From a virus (taxonomy: Duplodnaviria; Heunggongvirae; Uroviricota; Caudoviricetes), in IMG/VR virus record IMGVR_UViG_2526164662_000021, positions 1-64,000 of that record: 64,000 bases of DNA; one strand, written 5' to 3'. The position numbers and the translations under genes are program-made. Shown here piece after piece: positions 46,105-59,677 of the stretch; position 1 is the first letter of the stretch; every line of letters begins with the position of its first letter. Under the pieces are notes generated by a model. It saw nothing but the letters and a program-made list of their open reading frames with translations, was not told where the DNA came from and did no database searches.

Positions 46105-46950
46105 ATGCTGGCTAAAGTCACTTTCCTGAGCTGTATAACGATGAGCGATTTTACTTTTTCTGGCTATGAATTGGCCTGCTTTGTAACACACTCCGGTCTA
46201 TCCCGTAGCGCCGGGCATATCCTGTCGCAATGTGCAAATCTCGCGGCAACAACCAGTGAATACTTCATTCACAAGCCTCACCGCCTGCTCGCGGCAGAAA
46301 CTGGTTATAGCCAATCAACCGTCGTTCGTGCATTCCGTGAAGCTGTAAACAAAGGAATCCTGTCTGTAGAGATTGTTATCGGCGATCACCGTGAACGTCG
46401 CGCTAACCTGTACCGGTTTACACCATCCTTTTTGGCCTTCGCACAACAAGCCAAAAATGCGCTGATTGAAAGCAAATTAAAGATCTCTTCAGCGGCAACC
46501 AAGGTTAAAGCTGTTCTCGCTAAGACATTGGCTTTATTTAATTTTTTATCCACACCCCCATGTCAAAATGATACCCCCTCCCCCTGTCAGGATGACGTGG
46601 CAATAAAGAATAAGAAGTCACAAGTTAAAAAAACAAAAAGATCAGTTTCCGGCGGTGCCGGAACGACCAGACTCAAAAAATTGACTTCATGGATCGCTGA
46701 GGCAAAAGCAAAGGCTGACAATCTGCGGTTATCCAAAAAACGCGCTCAAAAACATGAGTTCAAGCAGAAAGTAGAGGCGGCAGCGCGGAAATATGCTTAC
46801 CTGAAGGACAAGCGTTCTCCTGATATTGGCGGGATATCAAACTTCGATAATCTGCCGCATTGCATGACGGTAAACGAAGCTCTTAATGCGGTTTTAGCCA
46901 AAAATAAAGATAACGAACAATGGGGTATACCGGCAGGATTCAGAGGGTGA
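46105..46950 (+). CDS. repL: RepL lytic replication initiator
   Basis: 281-aa ORF after kilA; size and position match P1 repL. Confidence 0.7.
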   Translation: MLAKVTFLSCITMSDFTFSGYELACFVTHSGLSRSAGHILSQCANLAATTSEYFIHKPHRLLAAETGYSQSTVVRAFREAVNKGILSVEIVIGDHRERRANLYRFTPSFLAFAQQAKNALIESKLKISSAATKVKAVLAKTLALFNFLSTPPCQNDTPSPCQDDVAIKNKKSQVKKTKRSVSGGAGTTRLKKLTSWIAEAKAKADNLRLSKKRAQKHEFKQKVEAAARKYAYLKDKRSPDIGGISNFDNLPHCMTVNEALNAVLAKNKDNEQWGIPAGFRG

Positions 46951-46953
46951 TAG

Positions 46954-46970
46954 ATTGCTCTAATCTGGAG
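46954..46970 (+). promoter_or_regulatory. Weak C1 operator-like half match (ATTGCTCTAATCTGGAG)
   Basis: First 11 nt match the consensus, remainder diverges. Confidence 0.3.
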
Positions 46971-47212
46971 TCACCTGGCGTTTTCAGTTTGAGGTCGGAG
47001 ATGCAATCTGATTTTTTACAGTTAGCGATCGCTTTTGCAGGGCATCTTTGAGACATATCCATATATAAAAACCCAAAGCCAGATCAAAACTTGTACTGAT
47101 AAAAACACAGCTAACCATCACAACTTGTAACGTTTATAATGAGTAAAAGAGTGATACATTGCTACTTTTACATATTTTTGACTCAATTCATGGATAGTAA
47201 TGGAGATGCATA

Positions 47213-48268
47213 ATGACTTATGCTGGCACACAAACAGCAGATAACGCCGGGGATACCATGAAATCGTATGCTATTTGGAATAATAAAGGTGGCGTAGGAA
47301 AGACCTACTTATCTTTCGCTATGGCCTGTGAATACGCAAGGCAAAATCCAGAAAAGCGTATTATTTTTGCAGATATGTGTCCGCAGGCTAACTTATCTGA
47401 AATATTGCTCGGCGGTAACGGTACTGGTGCTGCTAACCTCGCGAGCTTAATTCAACAACGAAAAACTGTCGGTGGGTACTTTGACAGAAGAACTCGCAGC
47501 CCCCACATGCTTACCGGTTCAGAAACAAGTTTCTTAATTCATGTCTCTGAAATTAACGGGCATGTCCCTGACAATGTATTTTTGATTGCAGGCGACCCAA
47601 GCCTGGAAGTTCAGGCGCAAGTAATCAATCAGTTAAGCAGCGTAAACTTACCAGTTGACTCATGGAAAAGCATCCACCTGTGGCTACGAGATTTGCTTGT
47701 TGCATGTGCACAACAACAAGGTATCGAAGAAACCATTTGCTTTATTGATTGCAACCCCAGTTTCTCTGCCTATACCGAACTATCACTGATAGCAGCAAAT
47801 GCAATTATAATACCTTGCTCAAGTGATGGTTCTTCGGCTCGAGCAGTGGATAACCTAAGCCAGTTGGTTTATGGCGTTGGAGTACAAAACGATTATCGTT
47901 CTGTTAACTTTTACGATCGGTGTCAACAGTTTGGTCTAGCGGTTCCTGTCATTCATTCTCTAGTTTTTAATCGTTCGACAGAGTATGACAAACGAGCAAG
48001 TAAAGCGTTTTCGGCAATGTTCGACGAAATCAGGGATAGAGCTGAAAATCTGCGGACGAATAAACCAACAGCGTTCCAAGGCGGAAATTTAAAAACGTTT
48101 ACTGTGCCAGATAACCATTCCGTAGCTATAGTATCTTCCCATCTAGGAAGACCTCTATTTGATATAAAACCCGGCAGATATCAGATCCATGACACTGAGC
48201 CACAAATCAATAATGAACCATTAGAAAGATATGGTGCAGCAATTGAACGTCTTGTTCAGAGTTTATAG
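47213..48268 (+). CDS. ParA/MinD-like P-loop ATPase (orphan)
   Basis: Deviant Walker A KGGVGKT near N-terminus; ATG with GGAGA RBS; no ParB or centromere adjacent. Confidence 0.7.
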   Translation: MTYAGTQTADNAGDTMKSYAIWNNKGGVGKTYLSFAMACEYARQNPEKRIIFADMCPQANLSEILLGGNGTGAANLASLIQQRKTVGGYFDRRTRSPHMLTGSETSFLIHVSEINGHVPDNVFLIAGDPSLEVQAQVINQLSSVNLPVDSWKSIHLWLRDLLVACAQQQGIEETICFIDCNPSFSAYTELSLIAANAIIIPCSSDGSSARAVDNLSQLVYGVGVQNDYRSVNFYDRCQQFGLAVPVIHSLVFNRSTEYDKRASKAFSAMFDEIRDRAENLRTNKPTAFQGGNLKTFTVPDNHSVAIVSSHLGRPLFDIKPGRYQIHDTEPQINNEPLERYGAAIERLVQSL

Positions 48269-48298
48269 TGGCTTATCTCAGTCATAATGGCTGAAAAA

Positions 48299-48328
48299 AG
48301 GCTGCAACAGAGGTTGCAGCCTTTTTTA
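48299..48328. terminator. Bidirectional intrinsic terminator
   Basis: AGGCTGCAAC-agag-GTTGCAGCCT flanked by A6 and T6. Confidence 0.65.
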
Positions 48329-48338
48329 TAAAATTACA

Positions 48339-48626
48339 TTAACAGATTGGTAGCGATAGTAAATTATTATTCCATCGATTGTCTGCATACGTTCTAATAA
48401 ACTGCCTTCCACCATTACCAGGATTAACGACCCCAACTTCTACACGATTACCTGCATTATCTGTTACATAGAATGTATGGAGATTATTATCAATAGCATT
48501 AATCACCTGCTCAACAGTCCATTTCCCATTGCCAGTATTAAATTGAGGACTTCCCACATGAGTAATATGCTCATGGATTGATTGCGAGCCGGAGAGGGTA
48601 ATGCAAGTAATGCGTACATCAGCCAT
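48339..48626 (-). CDS. DUF3892-like small protein
   Basis: 95 aa from ATG 48626 with AAGGAAG RBS; MADVRITCI...HITHVG...NNLLSLP pattern recalled for DUF3892. Confidence 0.5.
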   Translation of the reverse strand: MADVRITCITLSGSQSIHEHITHVGSPQFNTGNGKWTVEQVINAIDNNLHTFYVTDNAGNRVEVGVVNPGNGGRQFIRTYADNRWNNNLLSLPIC

Positions 48627-48916
48627 ATATACTTCCTTTATTCTATAGATTATAGGAATTGTGCCGCCTAAAAAACAAACAGCACAATAACAATAAAGAA
48701 ACATACACACAACAAAAACTAACGCTATTTATTGATAGATTTGCCTGATGAATACTAGCTCTCTTTGCTACCTAGCACTCAAACAAATAACAGAAGAAAG
48801 CCCCAGATAACATTACGCGTCCGGCAAGACGCTTAACATTAATCTGAGGCCACATCTATGCTTAGCATACGTAGATTAACCCTCTCCCCTTTTAAGGGGT
48901 AAGGAATTTTTTACTG

Positions 48917-49513
48917 CTATGCCGCCTTTCCAGTTATGGATTCAGCGACCAGAACAACCCCATGCTTACTTCGATCTGGGTGTTCACTCCATATCTCGGA
49001 TTCAGGAATACTTACCCCGTCATAGCAAACACGTTCGCCGTCAAACGGGTAATACTGAGCGGCATCGGTGTCGAGGATAAACACTTTTAGCTCGGAAGAG
49101 CGACGGGCGATGTGTTGCCAAAGAGCTTTTCCACCTTCGTATTGCTCATTATCACTGAGCAAAACAACACCAGCTTTTGAGGCTACGGTTTCGTAAACAA
49201 AAGTAGCTAAACCTACATCCCGGACAGTTCCATCAACCACAATACCTTCAATCTGGGCAACATCGCTATCCTCCCAAAACTTCCTTACCAGTACGCCTTC
49301 AAGCTGCGGACGACGTTGAAGTTCAAGAGTAGCGACAACCTTATGGCGCATATCACCATCGATAACAGAAGGCGCAGCCTCTATTACAGCTGCAAATGGG
49401 GTTTTGGAATCCCATATAACCTGGTAAAGCACACCCTGGATGGTAACTCCGTCCAGGATCGAAAATCGACGAGCGACAGTACCCGGGGAGTACGACATTG
49501 GAATCACAGCCAT
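48917..49513 (-). CDS. Hypothetical protein (198 aa)
   Basis: ATG at 49513 with AAAGGGGGA RBS; no motif recognised. Confidence 0.45.
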   Translation of the reverse strand: MAVIPMSYSPGTVARRFSILDGVTIQGVLYQVIWDSKTPFAAVIEAAPSVIDGDMRHKVVATLELQRRPQLEGVLVRKFWEDSDVAQIEGIVVDGTVRDVGLATFVYETVASKAGVVLLSDNEQYEGGKALWQHIARRSSELKVFILDTDAAQYYPFDGERVCYDGVSIPESEIWSEHPDRSKHGVVLVAESITGKAA

Positions 49514-49641
49514 TTTAGAGTCCCCCTTTAACAGTACAGGCACAAACATCTACCTCAATAATTGTAGTTTATTAGAACATTAATAATCTAACATAAAACT
49601 CCAGACAATGTTATCGATGCATTTTTATATAAAATAGTTAT

Positions 49642-49663
49642 AAAAAAAGCTCCCGTAGGAGCT
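49642..49663 (-). terminator. Intrinsic terminator (minus strand)
   Basis: AGCTCC-cgta-GGAGCT with T7 following on the minus strand. Confidence 0.55.
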
Positions 49664-49684
49664 TTAAAATACAAGGGATGACTC

Positions 49685-50194
49685 TTAATCCCAATCAATC
49701 CAGTTGTAGACGATACGAAGTGACGGGCGCACAGCGGCAGTCACATCTTCGGTACTAAAGTCGATTGCATCACTGTAGATTTTGCAGTCCAACATTTCAA
49801 TTGTTGTAGCAGCTTTTGTCACAGCGTTAACCCCGGAAGATTTGGATTCAGGGGTCGCAGCCATCGTGATATCAACATAGTCCTTCGCCGCAATGCGATC
49901 CTTAATGAACTGAAGAATATCACCTTCGATAGTCTCCACGCACTGGACCTGGATTTCCCCAGAGTTTCGAATTGGACCGTGCTGGTTGAACTTCACACCA
50001 TTCGGACCATAGTCCTCCACATCCTCGCGGGTCATTTCAGGGATTTGCGACGTGCGAACCAGTACGCTGATATCTTCATGGCCAGCAAAAGTGAGCTGGA
50101 ATTCAGAAGATACCAGTCGTTCACCTTTGGCCGCGTTGGCAGTATAGCGGCCCTTAATAAATTTACGGTTTCCCTTAGTGTTATTGTGCCCCAT
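49685..50194 (-). CDS. Phage structural protein (169 aa)
   Basis: Part of the late block upstream of sheath/capsid genes; synteny. Confidence 0.45.
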   Translation of the reverse strand: MGHNNTKGNRKFIKGRYTANAAKGERLVSSEFQLTFAGHEDISVLVRTSQIPEMTREDVEDYGPNGVKFNQHGPIRNSGEIQVQCVETIEGDILQFIKDRIAAKDYVDITMAATPESKSSGVNAVTKAATTIEMLDCKIYSDAIDFSTEDVTAAVRPSLRIVYNWIDWD

Positions 50195-55229: not shown

Positions 55230-56231
55230 TTAAGGCTTCGGCTTTTTATCGAGGCTCTTTCTAAGGATATGCCCAATCATCCTGTCGAGTTCTTCCTGTA
55301 GCTCTTTTGAAAGTCGATTAAACTCATAAGAAAATGCACGGCCTTTCACGCGCTTCCTTGCAAAGCGATCCTTGTCCTCAAATTTCCATAATTCAGTAAC
55401 TACGGACTTATCTTTAGAACCTTTATCCGTGAGTAGTGAGGCTTCCTTTGTTATCAAGCGCAGGATTTTATTTTTAACTTCATCTTCGGCCATTTCTTCA
55501 ATGGATAAGATGTCGTTTATTTCCGGGGATATATTTTGAATAAGCTGATCAAACTCTAAATTCTTGTTCCCCATTTCGTCGCCAACAGCACAAAGCGTTT
55601 TGTAGTCCGAAAAGGTTAATTCCGACTGCACAGGGAAAAGGGCGACTAATTCTTCCGGAGCACTCGCTGCCTGGAGAGCACGCGTGACCTTCGCCTGAGA
55701 CAGCCCTTCTTTGGCTGCAATATCCTTCTGACTCATCCCATCATTTTTCATTCGCATCAAACGCAGACCTATTTCTCGAATGCTGTGCTGCAATGCTGTC
55801 TGAACGTCTTTCGCTAAATTTTGCGCTTCCTGAACGCTGATCTCCTGGTCCGTGACTAAAACCCGCAACCCTACGTTCTCTAAGATGGCAGAAGCTCGAC
55901 GCCGGGAACCATCCAAAATTTCAATTTTCCCTGTTGCCCGTCTAACACCTATTGCAGGGTAAAATTGCTGATGCTTAATAGTGCTTCGGATACTTTTTAA
56001 TGATTTTGGCGTAAGAGATGCCTGGTCACGCCCGTTGTTATGCTGATCAACAAAGGTATCGCTTTCTACCTGGTTCGGAGGTATTACCTCTTCAATAAAT
56101 GTGGCCTGGCGACCAGTTGATAACTTGAATACCTGCTCGACTCGATCGCCAGAGGCTGAAGAACTATCAAATCCGCTTAATATTGAAGGATTAAGGGTTC
56201 GCCCAATTGTTGGTCTGTTTTTCTTTGACAT
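55230..56231 (-). CDS. parB: ParB partition protein
   Basis: 333 aa as in P1 ParB; downstream of parA; parS follows. Confidence 0.9.
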   Translation of the reverse strand: MSKKNRPTIGRTLNPSILSGFDSSSASGDRVEQVFKLSTGRQATFIEEVIPPNQVESDTFVDQHNNGRDQASLTPKSLKSIRSTIKHQQFYPAIGVRRATGKIEILDGSRRRASAILENVGLRVLVTDQEISVQEAQNLAKDVQTALQHSIREIGLRLMRMKNDGMSQKDIAAKEGLSQAKVTRALQAASAPEELVALFPVQSELTFSDYKTLCAVGDEMGNKNLEFDQLIQNISPEINDILSIEEMAEDEVKNKILRLITKEASLLTDKGSKDKSVVTELWKFEDKDRFARKRVKGRAFSYEFNRLSKELQEELDRMIGHILRKSLDKKPKP

Positions 56232-56247: not shown

Positions 56248-57444
56248 TCAGTTAGATCTGATAAATTCAATACGGTCAAAAACTGCTTTAGCAAAATCTT
56301 CCGCGGCAATTCGCGCGTTCTTCAATGCATCAGCACTACCAACATACGTTGCCGGGTTAGCTGAAATAACAGTGTCAAAAGACTCGCCGCAACGTTCAAA
56401 ACCGTCAAGGCGAGGGAGGACGACATCGAGCATATCCCCACCGAACACTTCTTTAGCCAGGCTATGGCAATACTTATGATCTGCCTTGTTACTCAACTTG
56501 GACATAAAACCAATGTTAGTCGCAAGCTGGCACTCGCAGCCTTCATCCGAAATGAGTTTCACCAACTCAGGAAGGCGGGCAACGTATTTAAGCGATGAGT
56601 GGAAATCGACAGTTGCTGGCGGCAGAGGTGTAAACAGTATATTGGCCGAGGCCAAAGCATTTTTCAGGAAGGCGTCAAGGTGAGGACCACTATCAACGAG
56701 GATAAAATCATAATCGCTCTTCAGCTTATCAATCACATTTTCTTTCAGGACAGCATGGATGTTCTGACCCGGTAGATGCTCATTGCACAGCTCTCTCCAA
56801 TCGGATGCAATAAAGGCATCGTCAATCGACGCAGGCATAACGTCAACCCCAGGTACAACAGAAGGAACAATAAACTCCTCTAACAGCTCTTCACGGCTTA
56901 CATTCTGCAACATAGCCTGTGCAGATGTTGCGTTTACGATACCAATAGAGTGTTTATGGCTTAAAAACATCGTTGCTGAAGATTGCGGATCAAGGTCAAT
57001 AACCAGAATCCTTAAATCTTCCATCAGAAGATGAGGGTGAGCACGCATTGCATGCGCCAGAGAAACCGTCGATACAGTTTTTGACACACCGCCTTTAAGA
57101 TTGGAGATGAAAATCACATACGCTTCGCTGTAGCGATCCCGGTATTTTGGCACTCCGCGATGTTCATATATGTCAATGATGTTCTGAATTGACATCGCAT
57201 ATTTCATTGAAGAGCCAGCAGGGCGCTTATCGAAAACATAACCCTTTTCTTCCATTTCACTTACAGCATAGTCAACGTTCGCTCGAGTCAGTAGAGGCAA
57301 TTTTGCCAGTGCCGCTTTCGCATAGACCTGGTAAAACTCGTTCGCGTGTAGCTCATCCTTTTGCAACTGTACTTGTTCAGTCAGAACATTGAGCATTCTG
57401 TTTGCTCTTTGAGCAACCTTGTGAAGCTGGCTGGAATCACTCAT
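56248..57444 (-). CDS. parA: ParA partition ATPase
   Basis: 398 aa (large ParA with N-terminal regulatory domain); Walker A KGGVSKT. Confidence 0.9.
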   Translation of the reverse strand: MSDSSQLHKVAQRANRMLNVLTEQVQLQKDELHANEFYQVYAKAALAKLPLLTRANVDYAVSEMEEKGYVFDKRPAGSSMKYAMSIQNIIDIYEHRGVPKYRDRYSEAYVIFISNLKGGVSKTVSTVSLAHAMRAHPHLLMEDLRILVIDLDPQSSATMFLSHKHSIGIVNATSAQAMLQNVSREELLEEFIVPSVVPGVDVMPASIDDAFIASDWRELCNEHLPGQNIHAVLKENVIDKLKSDYDFILVDSGPHLDAFLKNALASANILFTPLPPATVDFHSSLKYVARLPELVKLISDEGCECQLATNIGFMSKLSNKADHKYCHSLAKEVFGGDMLDVVLPRLDGFERCGESFDTVISANPATYVGSADALKNARIAAEDFAKAVFDRIEFIRSN

Positions 57445-57612: not shown

Positions 57613-58422
57613 TTATTTGTTAAGAGCTGCGAATAATCGTTCGAAATCGATAGTATATATAGCACGCGTAAGCGCCGGAAGTTCAGCCTCAAAGTACCCG
57701 TGTCGATCGTAAAAGAAGGGACCAAAGAGCGAGGAATGTTGGATTCTACTTCGCCCCAGCCCGGACACACAGTTAAGTCCATTACCGGATAAAAGGCTAA
57801 AAAACTTCTCTGGATTATCGTGGTAAAGCTGGGAATCAATGGTGGCAGTTAACTCTTCCATAGGGAAGCACACCCGCCCAGTCTCCCAGGAATATTTAGT
57901 CCGAAGCGTAAACATCGCTTTCAGCAATTCACATTGAGCGCGGATCGCGTCAGGTTCATAGCCAGATATGGAGACATAAGCCACATCCCTCATTCCTGCG
58001 TCATCTTTGAAAGTCACGATAGAAGTAACATCCAGTTCTTTTTCGAAAGAGCGAGCAGCATCTACTGGACGCTGAAGTAAATCATTCGACTTAATCCGCT
58101 CAAGAATCCCTCCCCACATATCATTTAGGTATTCGATATGAGCCAAAACCTTATCAAGACACTCTCGTGTAAACCATTCAGTATGCCCGCCACCGGCGCT
58201 TTTCTCCCACGGCGCATTCCAGGGGAAAAAGGTTGCGTGTAAAGCCCGCTCAAGATTAACCATTGCCAAACGCGTACCACGATAGACCCGTGAAAGCGCA
58301 AAATCGGGACTCACTTGTAGCCCTTTAAACCGTGCCAATGGACCACATGAAATGCCGATTTTAAAAGTATCTCCGTTCTCCGGCACCAGAACGTAGAGGT
58401 AGTGTTGTTTCTCTTCTTGCAT
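57613..58422 (-). CDS. T5orf172 (GIY-YIG-like) domain protein with C-terminal domain of unknown function
   Basis: 269 aa; N-terminal YLYVL...GDTFKIGIS...RFKGLQ...LERALH...TEWF pattern; own terminator. Confidence 0.6.
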   Translation of the reverse strand: MQEEKQHYLYVLVPENGDTFKIGISCGPLARFKGLQVSPDFALSRVYRGTRLAMVNLERALHATFFPWNAPWEKSAGGGHTEWFTRECLDKVLAHIEYLNDMWGGILERIKSNDLLQRPVDAARSFEKELDVTSIVTFKDDAGMRDVAYVSISGYEPDAIRAQCELLKAMFTLRTKYSWETGRVCFPMEELTATIDSQLYHDNPEKFFSLLSGNGLNCVSGLGRSRIQHSSLFGPFFYDRHGYFEAELPALTRAIYTIDFERLFAALNK

Positions 58423-58714: not shown

Positions 58715-59599
58715 TTATGGATTGCGCTTATGGATCTGGAAGCCGATTTTCCTGCCGTTTTTTATCTCTGAAAATTTAAGATATTCAATAGCTTCCAAAT
58801 CTTTCATAGCTTTTCTGATAACGCTATTTTGCACGCTAACGGATGATTTGAGATTAAGCCTTGCTCTAAGGCGCTCAATGCTGACAGGTGCCGGGTTGGC
58901 GGGTAGAGCCTCAAAGAATGTATACAGCACCTTGGCCGTCTCTTTGCGCCCGAGCTTATCCAGCATCTTCAGCTTCAGGATTCGCTTATAGTCAACATAG
59001 TAAAGTTCAGATAGCTGTTTCTGCGGCTGGATCTCGATAACATCAAGCTCGGTATTCAGGCTGCTATATGCCAACAAGTTGACGTTAATGTTATTGAGAT
59101 GACCTTTTGCCGCCGGGAAGCGGAATTTGACAACTGTCTGCTGAATGCGTGTCAGAGAGTCATCAATACTTTTACGGAACGCCTTTGAAAGGCGCTTACG
59201 TGGATAGCCGCATCGATCGGCAAACTCGGAGAATGGCAGGGTGATTATGCCGTCATCATCAGGTGCGTAGTCAAACAACGCGGAGGTTATGCCCACCCAC
59301 ACCTTAAAATCAGTATCCATATCCAGGCGTGGACCATGTATTTCAATTCCCTCATAGCCTTCCTGCTCAACAATTTTGAGGCTTGATAGTTCTTCGGTTG
59401 CGTTCGTTGTGTTTGTAGTAACTGACGATCCGCGACGTAGTGCCACATTGGTAGATTTTAAGGTTGGCACAAACACACCTAAGCGCAACAAAGCGATTGG
59501 TTGTATAGTGCTATTGTTATTGGGTTTCAGGCTGTGGATTTCTCCTGTATTTCCTGCAACTTCTTCAACGCTAAGGAAGCCTTTATTTTCTTCCGGCAT
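58715..59599 (-). CDS. repA: RepA iteron-binding replication initiator
   Basis: Rep_3-type protein (…GPRLDMDTDFKVW…); ATG at 59599 with GGAGAAA RBS; flanked by iterons. Confidence 0.85.
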   Translation of the reverse strand: MPEENKGFLSVEEVAGNTGEIHSLKPNNNSTIQPIALLRLGVFVPTLKSTNVALRRGSSVTTNTTNATEELSSLKIVEQEGYEGIEIHGPRLDMDTDFKVWVGITSALFDYAPDDDGIITLPFSEFADRCGYPRKRLSKAFRKSIDDSLTRIQQTVVKFRFPAAKGHLNNINVNLLAYSSLNTELDVIEIQPQKQLSELYYVDYKRILKLKMLDKLGRKETAKVLYTFFEALPANPAPVSIERLRARLNLKSSVSVQNSVIRKAMKDLEAIEYLKFSEIKNGRKIGFQIHKRNP

Positions 59600-59677
59600 C
59601 GTGGTTTCTCCATATGTGGCGCGGCCTGGCGTCATCTGGATTGCAGTTATCAACAACTGTGAATAGTCAGGCTCTAA

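Follow-up and report, generated by a model that had tools for sequence, protein, structure and literature searches.

The gene considered here is carried by a 64,000-nucleotide (nt) stretch of viral DNA (Caudoviricetes; positions 1 to 64,000 of IMG/VR record IMGVR_UViG_2526164662_000021), which is called the window throughout and represents a P1-like phage-plasmid having ant1/kilA/repL, a tail gene block and parAB. It is the open reading frame (ORF) at 47213-48268 on the plus strand, placed downstream of repL (46105-46950), and its 351-amino-acid (aa) product, an ATPase with the Walker A sequence NNKGGVGKT at K25-T31, is identical to WP_000220354.1. Sequence analysis places this protein in a distinct clade of the ParA/MinD fold, in which the Walker A lysines are kept and the water-activating aspartate has become an invariant cysteine. 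By analogy with its closest tested relative, GiPD474 of Salmonella, its role is most likely that of an accessory anti-phage gene. The explanation which we rank best, and towards which we lean with modest confidence, is that of a horizontally mobile solo ATPase which gives the lysogen defence against phages or superinfection exclusion and works as an ATP-locked dimer switch. The analysis itself establishes the fold, the motifs, the homology, the distribution and the genomic settings. That the paralogue of the window defends at all, together with every step of the mechanism given below, is what we infer; the phenotype of GiPD474 was shown by others.

The original prediction had described an orphan ParA/MinD-like ATPase with the Walker A sequence KGGVGKT standing 3′ of repL, and this description was borne out. 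The ParA/MinD fold (SIMIBI class, deviant Walker A) was recovered in the three-dimensional comparison, where the structural neighbours include MinD, FlhG and FleN. The proposed classification by profile hidden Markov models was carried out. Pfam AAA_31/CbiA matches the N-terminal part only and PHROG_164 ("ParA-like partition protein") matches at 6.5e-43, while the curated models failed: NCBIfam NF041546 (ParA_partition) gave 39.8 bits against a cut-off of 180, over residues 20-63 only, and TIGR03371 (BcsQ) gave 21.3 bits against a cut-off of 157.85. In some sources the annotation of homologues reads BcsQ or "septum formation inhibitor-activating ATPase".

The nucleotide-binding motifs define the clade. 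K25 and K30 align with K11 and K16 of Soj, so that both lysines of the deviant Walker A motif are kept, and the Walker B-like motif is D179-C-N-P-S183. Switch I reads D54-M-C56-P-Q58, in which C56 aligns with D40 of Soj and replaces the catalytic aspartate. Cys56 might form a metal site together with Cys180 and Cys202. The pattern D-x-C-P-Q is present in 233 of the 240 close homologues retrieved and aspartate occupies that position in none of the 240; among distant cluster representatives the switch I residue is cysteine in 83 versus aspartate in 5. An alignment of 30 homologues gave a mean column identity of 65% with about 100 invariant positions, and homologues which are 55-61% identical come from Desulfovibrio, Halomonas, Acidiferrobacter, Patescibacteria, Methylovirgula and others. 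Prediction confidence is high for the C-terminal helix, which in the model appears to be packed on the domain; no MinD-like C-terminal membrane helix was seen in the predicted structure. Fused domains were sought in the longest homologues (450-595 aa), whose extra regions had no Pfam match. The arginine of the Soj "DART" motif, which we take to be the DNA-binding R189, lies one column away from R254 of the ATPase in the MAFFT alignment, too ambiguous to be used.

The same aspartate-to-cysteine change is found in BcsQ, the regulator of cellulose secretion in E. coli (PDB 6YAR), where the sequence is VDACPDN. BcsQ differs in lacking the cis Walker A lysine (T15) and in needing BcsR and BcsE, whereas the window ATPase retains the two lysines, contains insertions that differ and amount to about 100 aa, and has no bcs genes near it. 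BcsQ purifies as an ATP-loaded sandwich dimer with weak ATPase activity, and activation in trans is presumed to be required for its hydrolysis of ATP (PMC7840130). From P1 ParA, Soj, McdA and pSM19035 delta the window ATPase is distinguished by the lack of ParB and centromere and by the cysteine in place of the catalytic aspartate, and about 100 of its residues are family-specific insertions relative to canonical partition ParAs.

The closest relative with a tested function is GiPD474 (STM474_RS13505), a Gifsy-1 gene of Salmonella Typhimurium 4/74 reported by Bosma, Noireaux and Bowden 2025 (PMC12724215). Its expression from a plasmid, E. coli K-12 being included among the hosts, lowered the plating of T4 and Alf5 by about 5 logs, its deletion restored the plating of Felix O1, and it had no effect on T7, SP6, S16 and other phages; action after adsorption was suggested by the authors as a possibility (PMC12724215). 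The sequence P0138 was taken as GiPD474 because it has 361 aa, carries GGVGKT at 29-34 and is matched at both termini by the published knock-out primer arms, which translate to residues 2-14 of P0138 (DNGRVEATDRPTE) and to its C-terminus (ALESDVSTVVKC). The window ATPase aligns with it over the full length (36% identity and 59% positives over 342 aa, E 7e-78). Both proteins are products of single genes of about 350-360 aa, with no fused effector domain and no partner gene, and they have in common the motifs WNNKGGVGKT, D-x-C-P-Q-x-N-x-SE-I-x-LGGNG-x-G, IDCNPSF, IIPC-x-x-D and NRS. Both are prophage-borne, and close homologues of each are located directly 3′ of cI.

The two proteins nevertheless stand in separate clades, D-A-C-P-Q for GiPD474 and D-M-C-P-Q for the window ATPase, with 34-38% identity between them, each clade being highly conserved and widely scattered. 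GiPD474 lies in a lambdoid immunity region, whereas the window gene lies on a P1-like phage-plasmid 3′ of repL. The published survey covered relatives at least 70% identical in Enterobacteriaceae (PMC12724215); the D-M-C-P-Q clade is spread far beyond this family. The one member with a measured phage resistance is GiPD474.

The position of the relatives in other viruses was surveyed as well. The copy in a lambdoid prophage of Serratia marcescens (85% identical) is immediately 3′ of a cI-type repressor on the same strand, the copy in Pseudomonas phage phi297 (71% identical) is immediately 3′ of cI on the same strand, and relatives in Salmonella phage S.Inf 5-2 and Klebsiella phage ST11-VIM1phi8.2 are likewise directly downstream of a cI-type repressor. 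This slot 3′ of cI is presumably the one held by rexAB in lambda. In 71 viral loci other than P1-like ones, the nearest same-strand upstream ORF is a protein with helix-turn-helix (HTH) and Peptidase_S24 domains in 40 and a short HTH repressor-like protein in 10; these counts come from Pfam searches with 25 cluster representatives, the clusters being assigned to loci by eye via the motif G[DNHQ]SM. In Gifsy-1 the cI-adjacent slot is occupied by remAIN or gipd474 (PMC9879122, PMC13043305), and the sharing of this slot with recognised prophage defence genes speaks for a defence role. The phi297 homologue has earlier been read as a partition gene to explain unstable lysogeny (PMC3564109).

Outside viruses the settings are different. 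The homologue of Desulfovibrio G20 is solitary, between insertion sequence (IS) elements of the IS3 type, that of Acidiferrobacter is found among toxin-antitoxin genes, IS elements and hsdM fragments, and other chromosomal homologues lie among housekeeping genes. When 92 genes directly adjoining D-M-C-P-Q genes were collected from species-representative genomes, no families recurred except the transposases of IS1595 (6) and IS1 (4), and a search of about 150 other loci for a constant neighbour gene found none. Since the neighbours vary from locus to locus and no family other than IS transposases recurs, the clade is regarded as having no conserved partner.

A sister clade, D-L-C-P-Q, is 37-40% identical to the window ATPase and is followed, in translational coupling, by a conserved partner of about 200 aa, at a gap of -17 to +15 nt, which carries K-V-R-H-S-F-A-H-G, an Rx4H motif. 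Three of the partners scanned from viral loci gave hits to Pfam RiboL-PSP-HEPN (E 4.6e-10 to 1.9e-6, one being just under the gathering score), and the dyad was recovered from 4 loci in viruses as well as from 9 genomes (cyanobacteria, Frankia, Micromonospora, Luteolibacter and a metagenome-assembled genome (MAG) of Thiotrichaceae). It resembles the ParA/Soj-HEPN dyads (MAE_18760-type) which were predicted by Anantharaman et al. 2013 as toxin-antitoxin or abortive-infection modules (PMC3710099), the HEPN families being likened by description. The RemAIN system of Gifsy-1 also consists of a ParA-like ATPase RemA, an immunity protein RemI and a HEPN anticodon nuclease RemN (PMC9879122, PMC13043305); it uses the same Gifsy-1 slot as GiPD474, and RemA is likened to the ATPase clade by description only. 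RemAIN and the ParA-HEPN dyads have a HEPN gene, whereas the window ATPase and its clade have neither HEPN nor another constant neighbour: no HEPN ORF was found next to the window ATPase or at D-M-C-P-Q loci, and the dyad occurs in the D-L-C-P-Q clade only. Two other relatives have as same-strand next gene a HipA-like kinase (HipA_2, 2.7e-16) and a sub-threshold GIY-YIG protein (E 0.0033, 18.1 bits against a cut-off of 22.6), which hints that this type of ATPase may pair with different effectors. Since a HEPN RNase is coupled to the ATPase in the sister clade, and a HEPN nuclease accompanies a ParA-like ATPase in RemAIN, the window ATPase is probably a sensing or regulatory module. Taken together these contexts place ATPases of this type within conflict systems and suggest that they are the sensing or regulatory part.

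The mechanism that we propose draws on the analysis of motifs, on the precedent of BcsQ and on the modular settings. ATP binding would drive the formation of a sandwich dimer, which would be long-lived, as in BcsQ, because the catalytic base is missing. The dimer would act as a nucleotide-dependent switch, and a component of the infecting phage may trigger or discharge it in trans. In the solo forms the dimer itself would have to block a step after adsorption, for instance by coating DNA or by sequestering a phage replication or packaging factor, or else would have to make use of a ubiquitous host factor.

The features of the gene and of its surroundings are listed below (coordinates in the window, strand, description).

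47042-48791, no strand: AT-rich cassette of 1.75 kb, inserted in the variable slot between repL and bplB and carrying the ATPase and DUF3892 genes.

46954-46970, plus: candidate C1 operator remnant at the Orlf/Op55 position, right after the repL stop.

47042-47212, plus: cassette-specific upstream region, presumed site of the ATPase gene's own promoter.

47202-47205, plus: Shine-Dalgarno sequence GGAG, 7 nt 5′ of the ATG at 47213, read from the sequence.

48294-48327, no strand: bidirectional intrinsic terminator, common to the ATPase gene and to the DUF3892 gene that converges on it.

48339-48626, minus: DUF3892 gene, 95 aa in the PGAP annotation, Pfam DUF3892 at 5.3e-15, phrog_8224.

55230-56231, minus: P1-type parB, true partition partner gene of the window.

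56248-57444, minus: P1-type parA, true partition ATPase gene of the window.

The ATPase gene is considered real because its homologues number in the thousands and many are more than 55% identical. Its true start codon is uncertain, because most homologues start at the equivalent of Met16 in the alignment, which is encoded by a second in-frame ATG at 47258, and because residues 1-13 are predicted to be disordered. The ribosome-binding site and the strong bidirectional terminator that had been ascribed to the gene were both located. The terminator has perfect arms of 15 nt (48294-48308 and 48313-48327) with an A-run on the 5′ side and a T-run on the 3′ side, and it folds with -29.2 kcal/mol (z = -5.2 relative to shuffled sequences); the downstream neighbour is the convergent minus-strand DUF3892 gene. 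A scan for sigma-70 promoters upstream of the gene remained at chance level, and for this reason no promoter was assigned. The upstream region 47042-47212 is not common to other P1-like phages, and no conservation of upstream DNA was found among homologue loci, the DNA similarity to the Serratia and Pseudomonas copies being limited to the coding part 47245-48231. A recognisable upstream non-coding RNA is taken to be absent because the Rfam search of 46500-49700 (E-value mode) gave nothing above the gathering score. Between 46900 and 48900 no ParB-like ORF was found and no centromere-like repeat array, just short two-copy repeats at chance level. The window's own ParA resembles the 351-aa ATPase in the P-loop region alone (30% over 69 aa), and the separation from the parAB locus that had been claimed for the gene is upheld. 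A 269-aa ORF lies at 57613-58422 (minus strand), between parA and a RepA-like ORF (58715-59656); to our knowledge P1 has no gene at this position.

The borders of the cassette were obtained from comparison with related phage-plasmids. Its GC content is 39.7% versus 47.2% for the window. Homology to vB_EcoM-673R5 ends at 47041 and that to RCS47 at 46987, and both restart at 48792. DNA homology to P1 ends at 46964, inside the Orlf operator, and restarts at 49643 in bplB, with none over 46965-49642. The 11-nt operator core ATTGCTCTAAT (46954-46964) is kept, and the final 6 nt are unlike P1 when compared by eye. In P1 the order after repL is the Orlf operator, rlfA (a DUF3800 protein), rlfB and pmgF. 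P1 rlfA/rlfB thus hold the same position as the ATPase gene, directly 3′ of repL and the Orlf operator, but are unrelated to it, rlfA being a DUF3800 protein. As judged from these DNA-level borders, the ATPase cassette is foreign cargo which replaces rlfA/rlfB in a minority of P1-like phage-plasmids. The idea that the ATPase could correspond to rlfA/rlfB was accordingly given up, given the absence of P1 DNA homology over 46965-49642 and the DUF3800 nature of rlfA; no orthology to any characterised P1 core protein was found either.

The gap between repL and bplB (46965-49642) has different contents in different members. P1 and P7 have rlfA(rapA)-rlfB-pmgF; RCS47 has an IS605-family element (annotated ISEc46) followed by a gene matching a 210-aa ORF of the window; vB_EcoM-673R5 has a single hypothetical gene at the position of this ORF; and the window has the ATPase/DUF3892 cassette followed by the 210-aa ORF. 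The latter (48917-49549, minus strand) stands at the position of P1 pmgF in the window lineage, RCS47 and 673R5, belongs to phrog_7522, is without a Pfam match and is annotated by PGAP with 198 aa. The DUF3892 gene is inherited with the ATPase gene in P1-like plasmids and not elsewhere. It was rejected as a functional partner, since it is not adjacent to homologues in 8 other contexts and is unrelated to the downstream gene of phi297, and it was also rejected as the counterpart of P1 PmgF, to which it proved unrelated in comparison. At the right cassette junction, 89 bp (48797-48885) are 94% identical to the mok region (hok/sok) of prophage Rac. The Rfam match to sok is weak there (20 bits against a gathering score of 59) and no Hok-like ORF of at least 40 aa is listed; the segment is probably a fragment of a hok/sok module.

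The distribution of the gene is patchy among close relatives and very wide at the family level. A DNA-level search of 50,697 phage records, P1 itself included, found the ATPase gene in none. In PLSDB, 697 plasmid records match some part of 46951-49700 (2.75 kb), whereas the ATPase gene is in 42 and the DUF3892 segment in 42, the listed accessions overlapping; among complete E. coli genomes the gene is in 39 of 5,426, plasmid-borne every time. This mobile and patchy occurrence, with the AT-rich cassette, supports the reading of a mobile defence gene. The plasmid pP136-6 (NZ_CP080229.1; 74.6 kb, MOB-suite type IncHI1B) is 100% identical to the window over 46951-49700 and may be a deleted P1-like derivative, or its IncHI1B typing may be an artefact. 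In two plasmids of pig enterotoxigenic E. coli (CP122667.1 and NZ_CP122664.1) the gene is split over two places each, with a match beginning at gene nt 309, which suggests disruption, e.g. by insertion.

Relatives are encoded by at least 581 of 185,579 species-representative genomes, including Acidobacteriota, Planctomycetota, Chloroflexota, Spirochaetia, Nitrospirales, Bdellovibrionales, cyanobacteria, actinomycetes and Verrucomicrobiota, and also archaeal MAGs of Hodarchaeota, Methanoperedenaceae and Micrarchaeota. Many of these relatives, archaeal ones among them, are 50-60% identical to the E. coli plasmid protein. A library of 1.84 billion representatives gave 186 clusters (50% identity) at E <= 1e-30, and the scan of IMG/VR gave 143 viral contigs encoding a relative, from which 80 loci were kept, 9 of them P1-like.

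Several points weigh against a defence role of the window gene. An identity of 36% makes the ATPase a paralogue of GiPD474, and its specificity or even its function could differ. The gene lies 3′ of the lytic replicon and behind a C1-operator remnant and not beside an immunity repressor, so its expression in lysogens is in question. Defence genes are seldom as conserved as this clade (55-60% identity between phyla, mean column identity 65%), and many chromosomal copies directly adjoin housekeeping genes, not defence genes. The protein, like GiPD474, has no effector domain by which a phage would be blocked. PADLOC 2.0 gave no match for the ATPase, the DUF3892 protein or the 210-aa ORF; this result is uninformative and not negative, because GiPD474 itself was missed. 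PADLOC 2.0 gave no significant match for one HEPN partner as well.

The other explanations have to be set against the same evidence. An accessory partition or positioning ATPase, which would place the P1 plasmid prophage or the lytic replication complexes on the nucleoid, would agree with the ParA fold, with both Walker A lysines and with the neighbouring repL/oriL lytic replicon, and R254 is within one residue of the assumed Soj arginine, which is not decisive. This role, of which the part on lytic replication complexes had been raised in the original prediction, is now very unlikely in our view. The element has a complete parAB already, the gene comes with no ParB, adaptor or centromere repeats, and it is missing in P1, in all 50,697 phage records searched as DNA and in the majority of the plasmid records that match. 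Its close homologues are in integrated prophages beside cI or solitary in chromosomes among housekeeping and IS genes, the score on the ParA partition model is 39.8 versus 180 bits, cysteine stands where the ParA cycle has its catalytic aspartate, and the nearest tested relative is anti-phage (PMC12724215). A different role for a ParA-type protein, as a lysogenic-conversion factor which rewires a host process of the ParA/MinD type (division, number of flagella or pili, or BcsQ-like cellulose secretion) and gives resistance indirectly at the surface, would suit the BcsQ-like switch I, the BcsQ and septum-type annotations and the structural neighbours MinD, FlhG and FleN. We give it very little credence: the BcsQ model scores 21.3 versus 157.85 bits, homologues of 50-60% identity occur in phyla and archaea without those host machineries, the predicted structure has no MinD-like C-terminal membrane helix, and a possible post-adsorption action was suggested for GiPD474 (PMC12724215).

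The coupling of the sister clade to HEPN and the lack of an effector domain in solo forms would also fit an orphan antitoxin or anti-defence protein, the solo ATPase half of ParA-HEPN modules, which would neutralise HEPN toxins of the host or of rivals and so protect the phage-plasmid; Anantharaman et al. indeed proposed the ATPase as the antitoxin of such dyads (PMC3710099). This is improbable, as phage restriction in two species is achieved by the solo homologue GiPD474 alone (PMC12724215), identity between the solo clades and the HEPN-linked clade is just 37-40%, and E. coli hosts are not known to have a cognate HEPN gene. Lastly, the gene could be a selfish passenger of no benefit to phage or host, addiction-like or IS-associated and kept by its own mobility. 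Its solitary and scattered occurrence, the IS1595 (6) and IS1 (4) transposases among 92 neighbours, the IS3-type elements in Desulfovibrio G20 and the truncated copy in one plasmid pair are in line with this, but we find it hard to credit in view of the strongly non-random position beside cI and of the strong purifying selection across phyla (about 100 invariant columns), from which a selected biochemical function is argued.

A wider and bolder version of the defence reading may be stated, to which we assign a small chance only. Solo Cys-switch ParA ATPases might be an ancient and ultra-conserved single-protein immune module of bacteria and some archaea, which stops phages without nuclease, toxin or partner, for example by ATP dimers which resist hydrolysis and assemble on the DNA of the invader or on some intermediate of replication or packaging that is conserved universally; systems of the HEPN-linked and RemAIN types would in that case have been built upon this sensor. 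If this is true, the P1 copy would be its first example on a phage-plasmid.

Genome pipelines label the protein "ParA family protein", while the evidence given here points to a separate functional class. The solo ParA-like prophage defence ATPase as a kind was described in late 2025, and the window gene is a member of a sister clade on a new type of carrier; within the literature examined, the invariant aspartate-to-cysteine signature, the link between the solo and HEPN clades and the breadth of distribution seem to be new. The aspartate-to-cysteine change and the HEPN link open cheap tests of how a phage is blocked without an effector. In P1-like phage-plasmids the stretch from repL to bplB is a slot for cargo, a point of importance since resistance genes are spread among E. 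coli by such elements.

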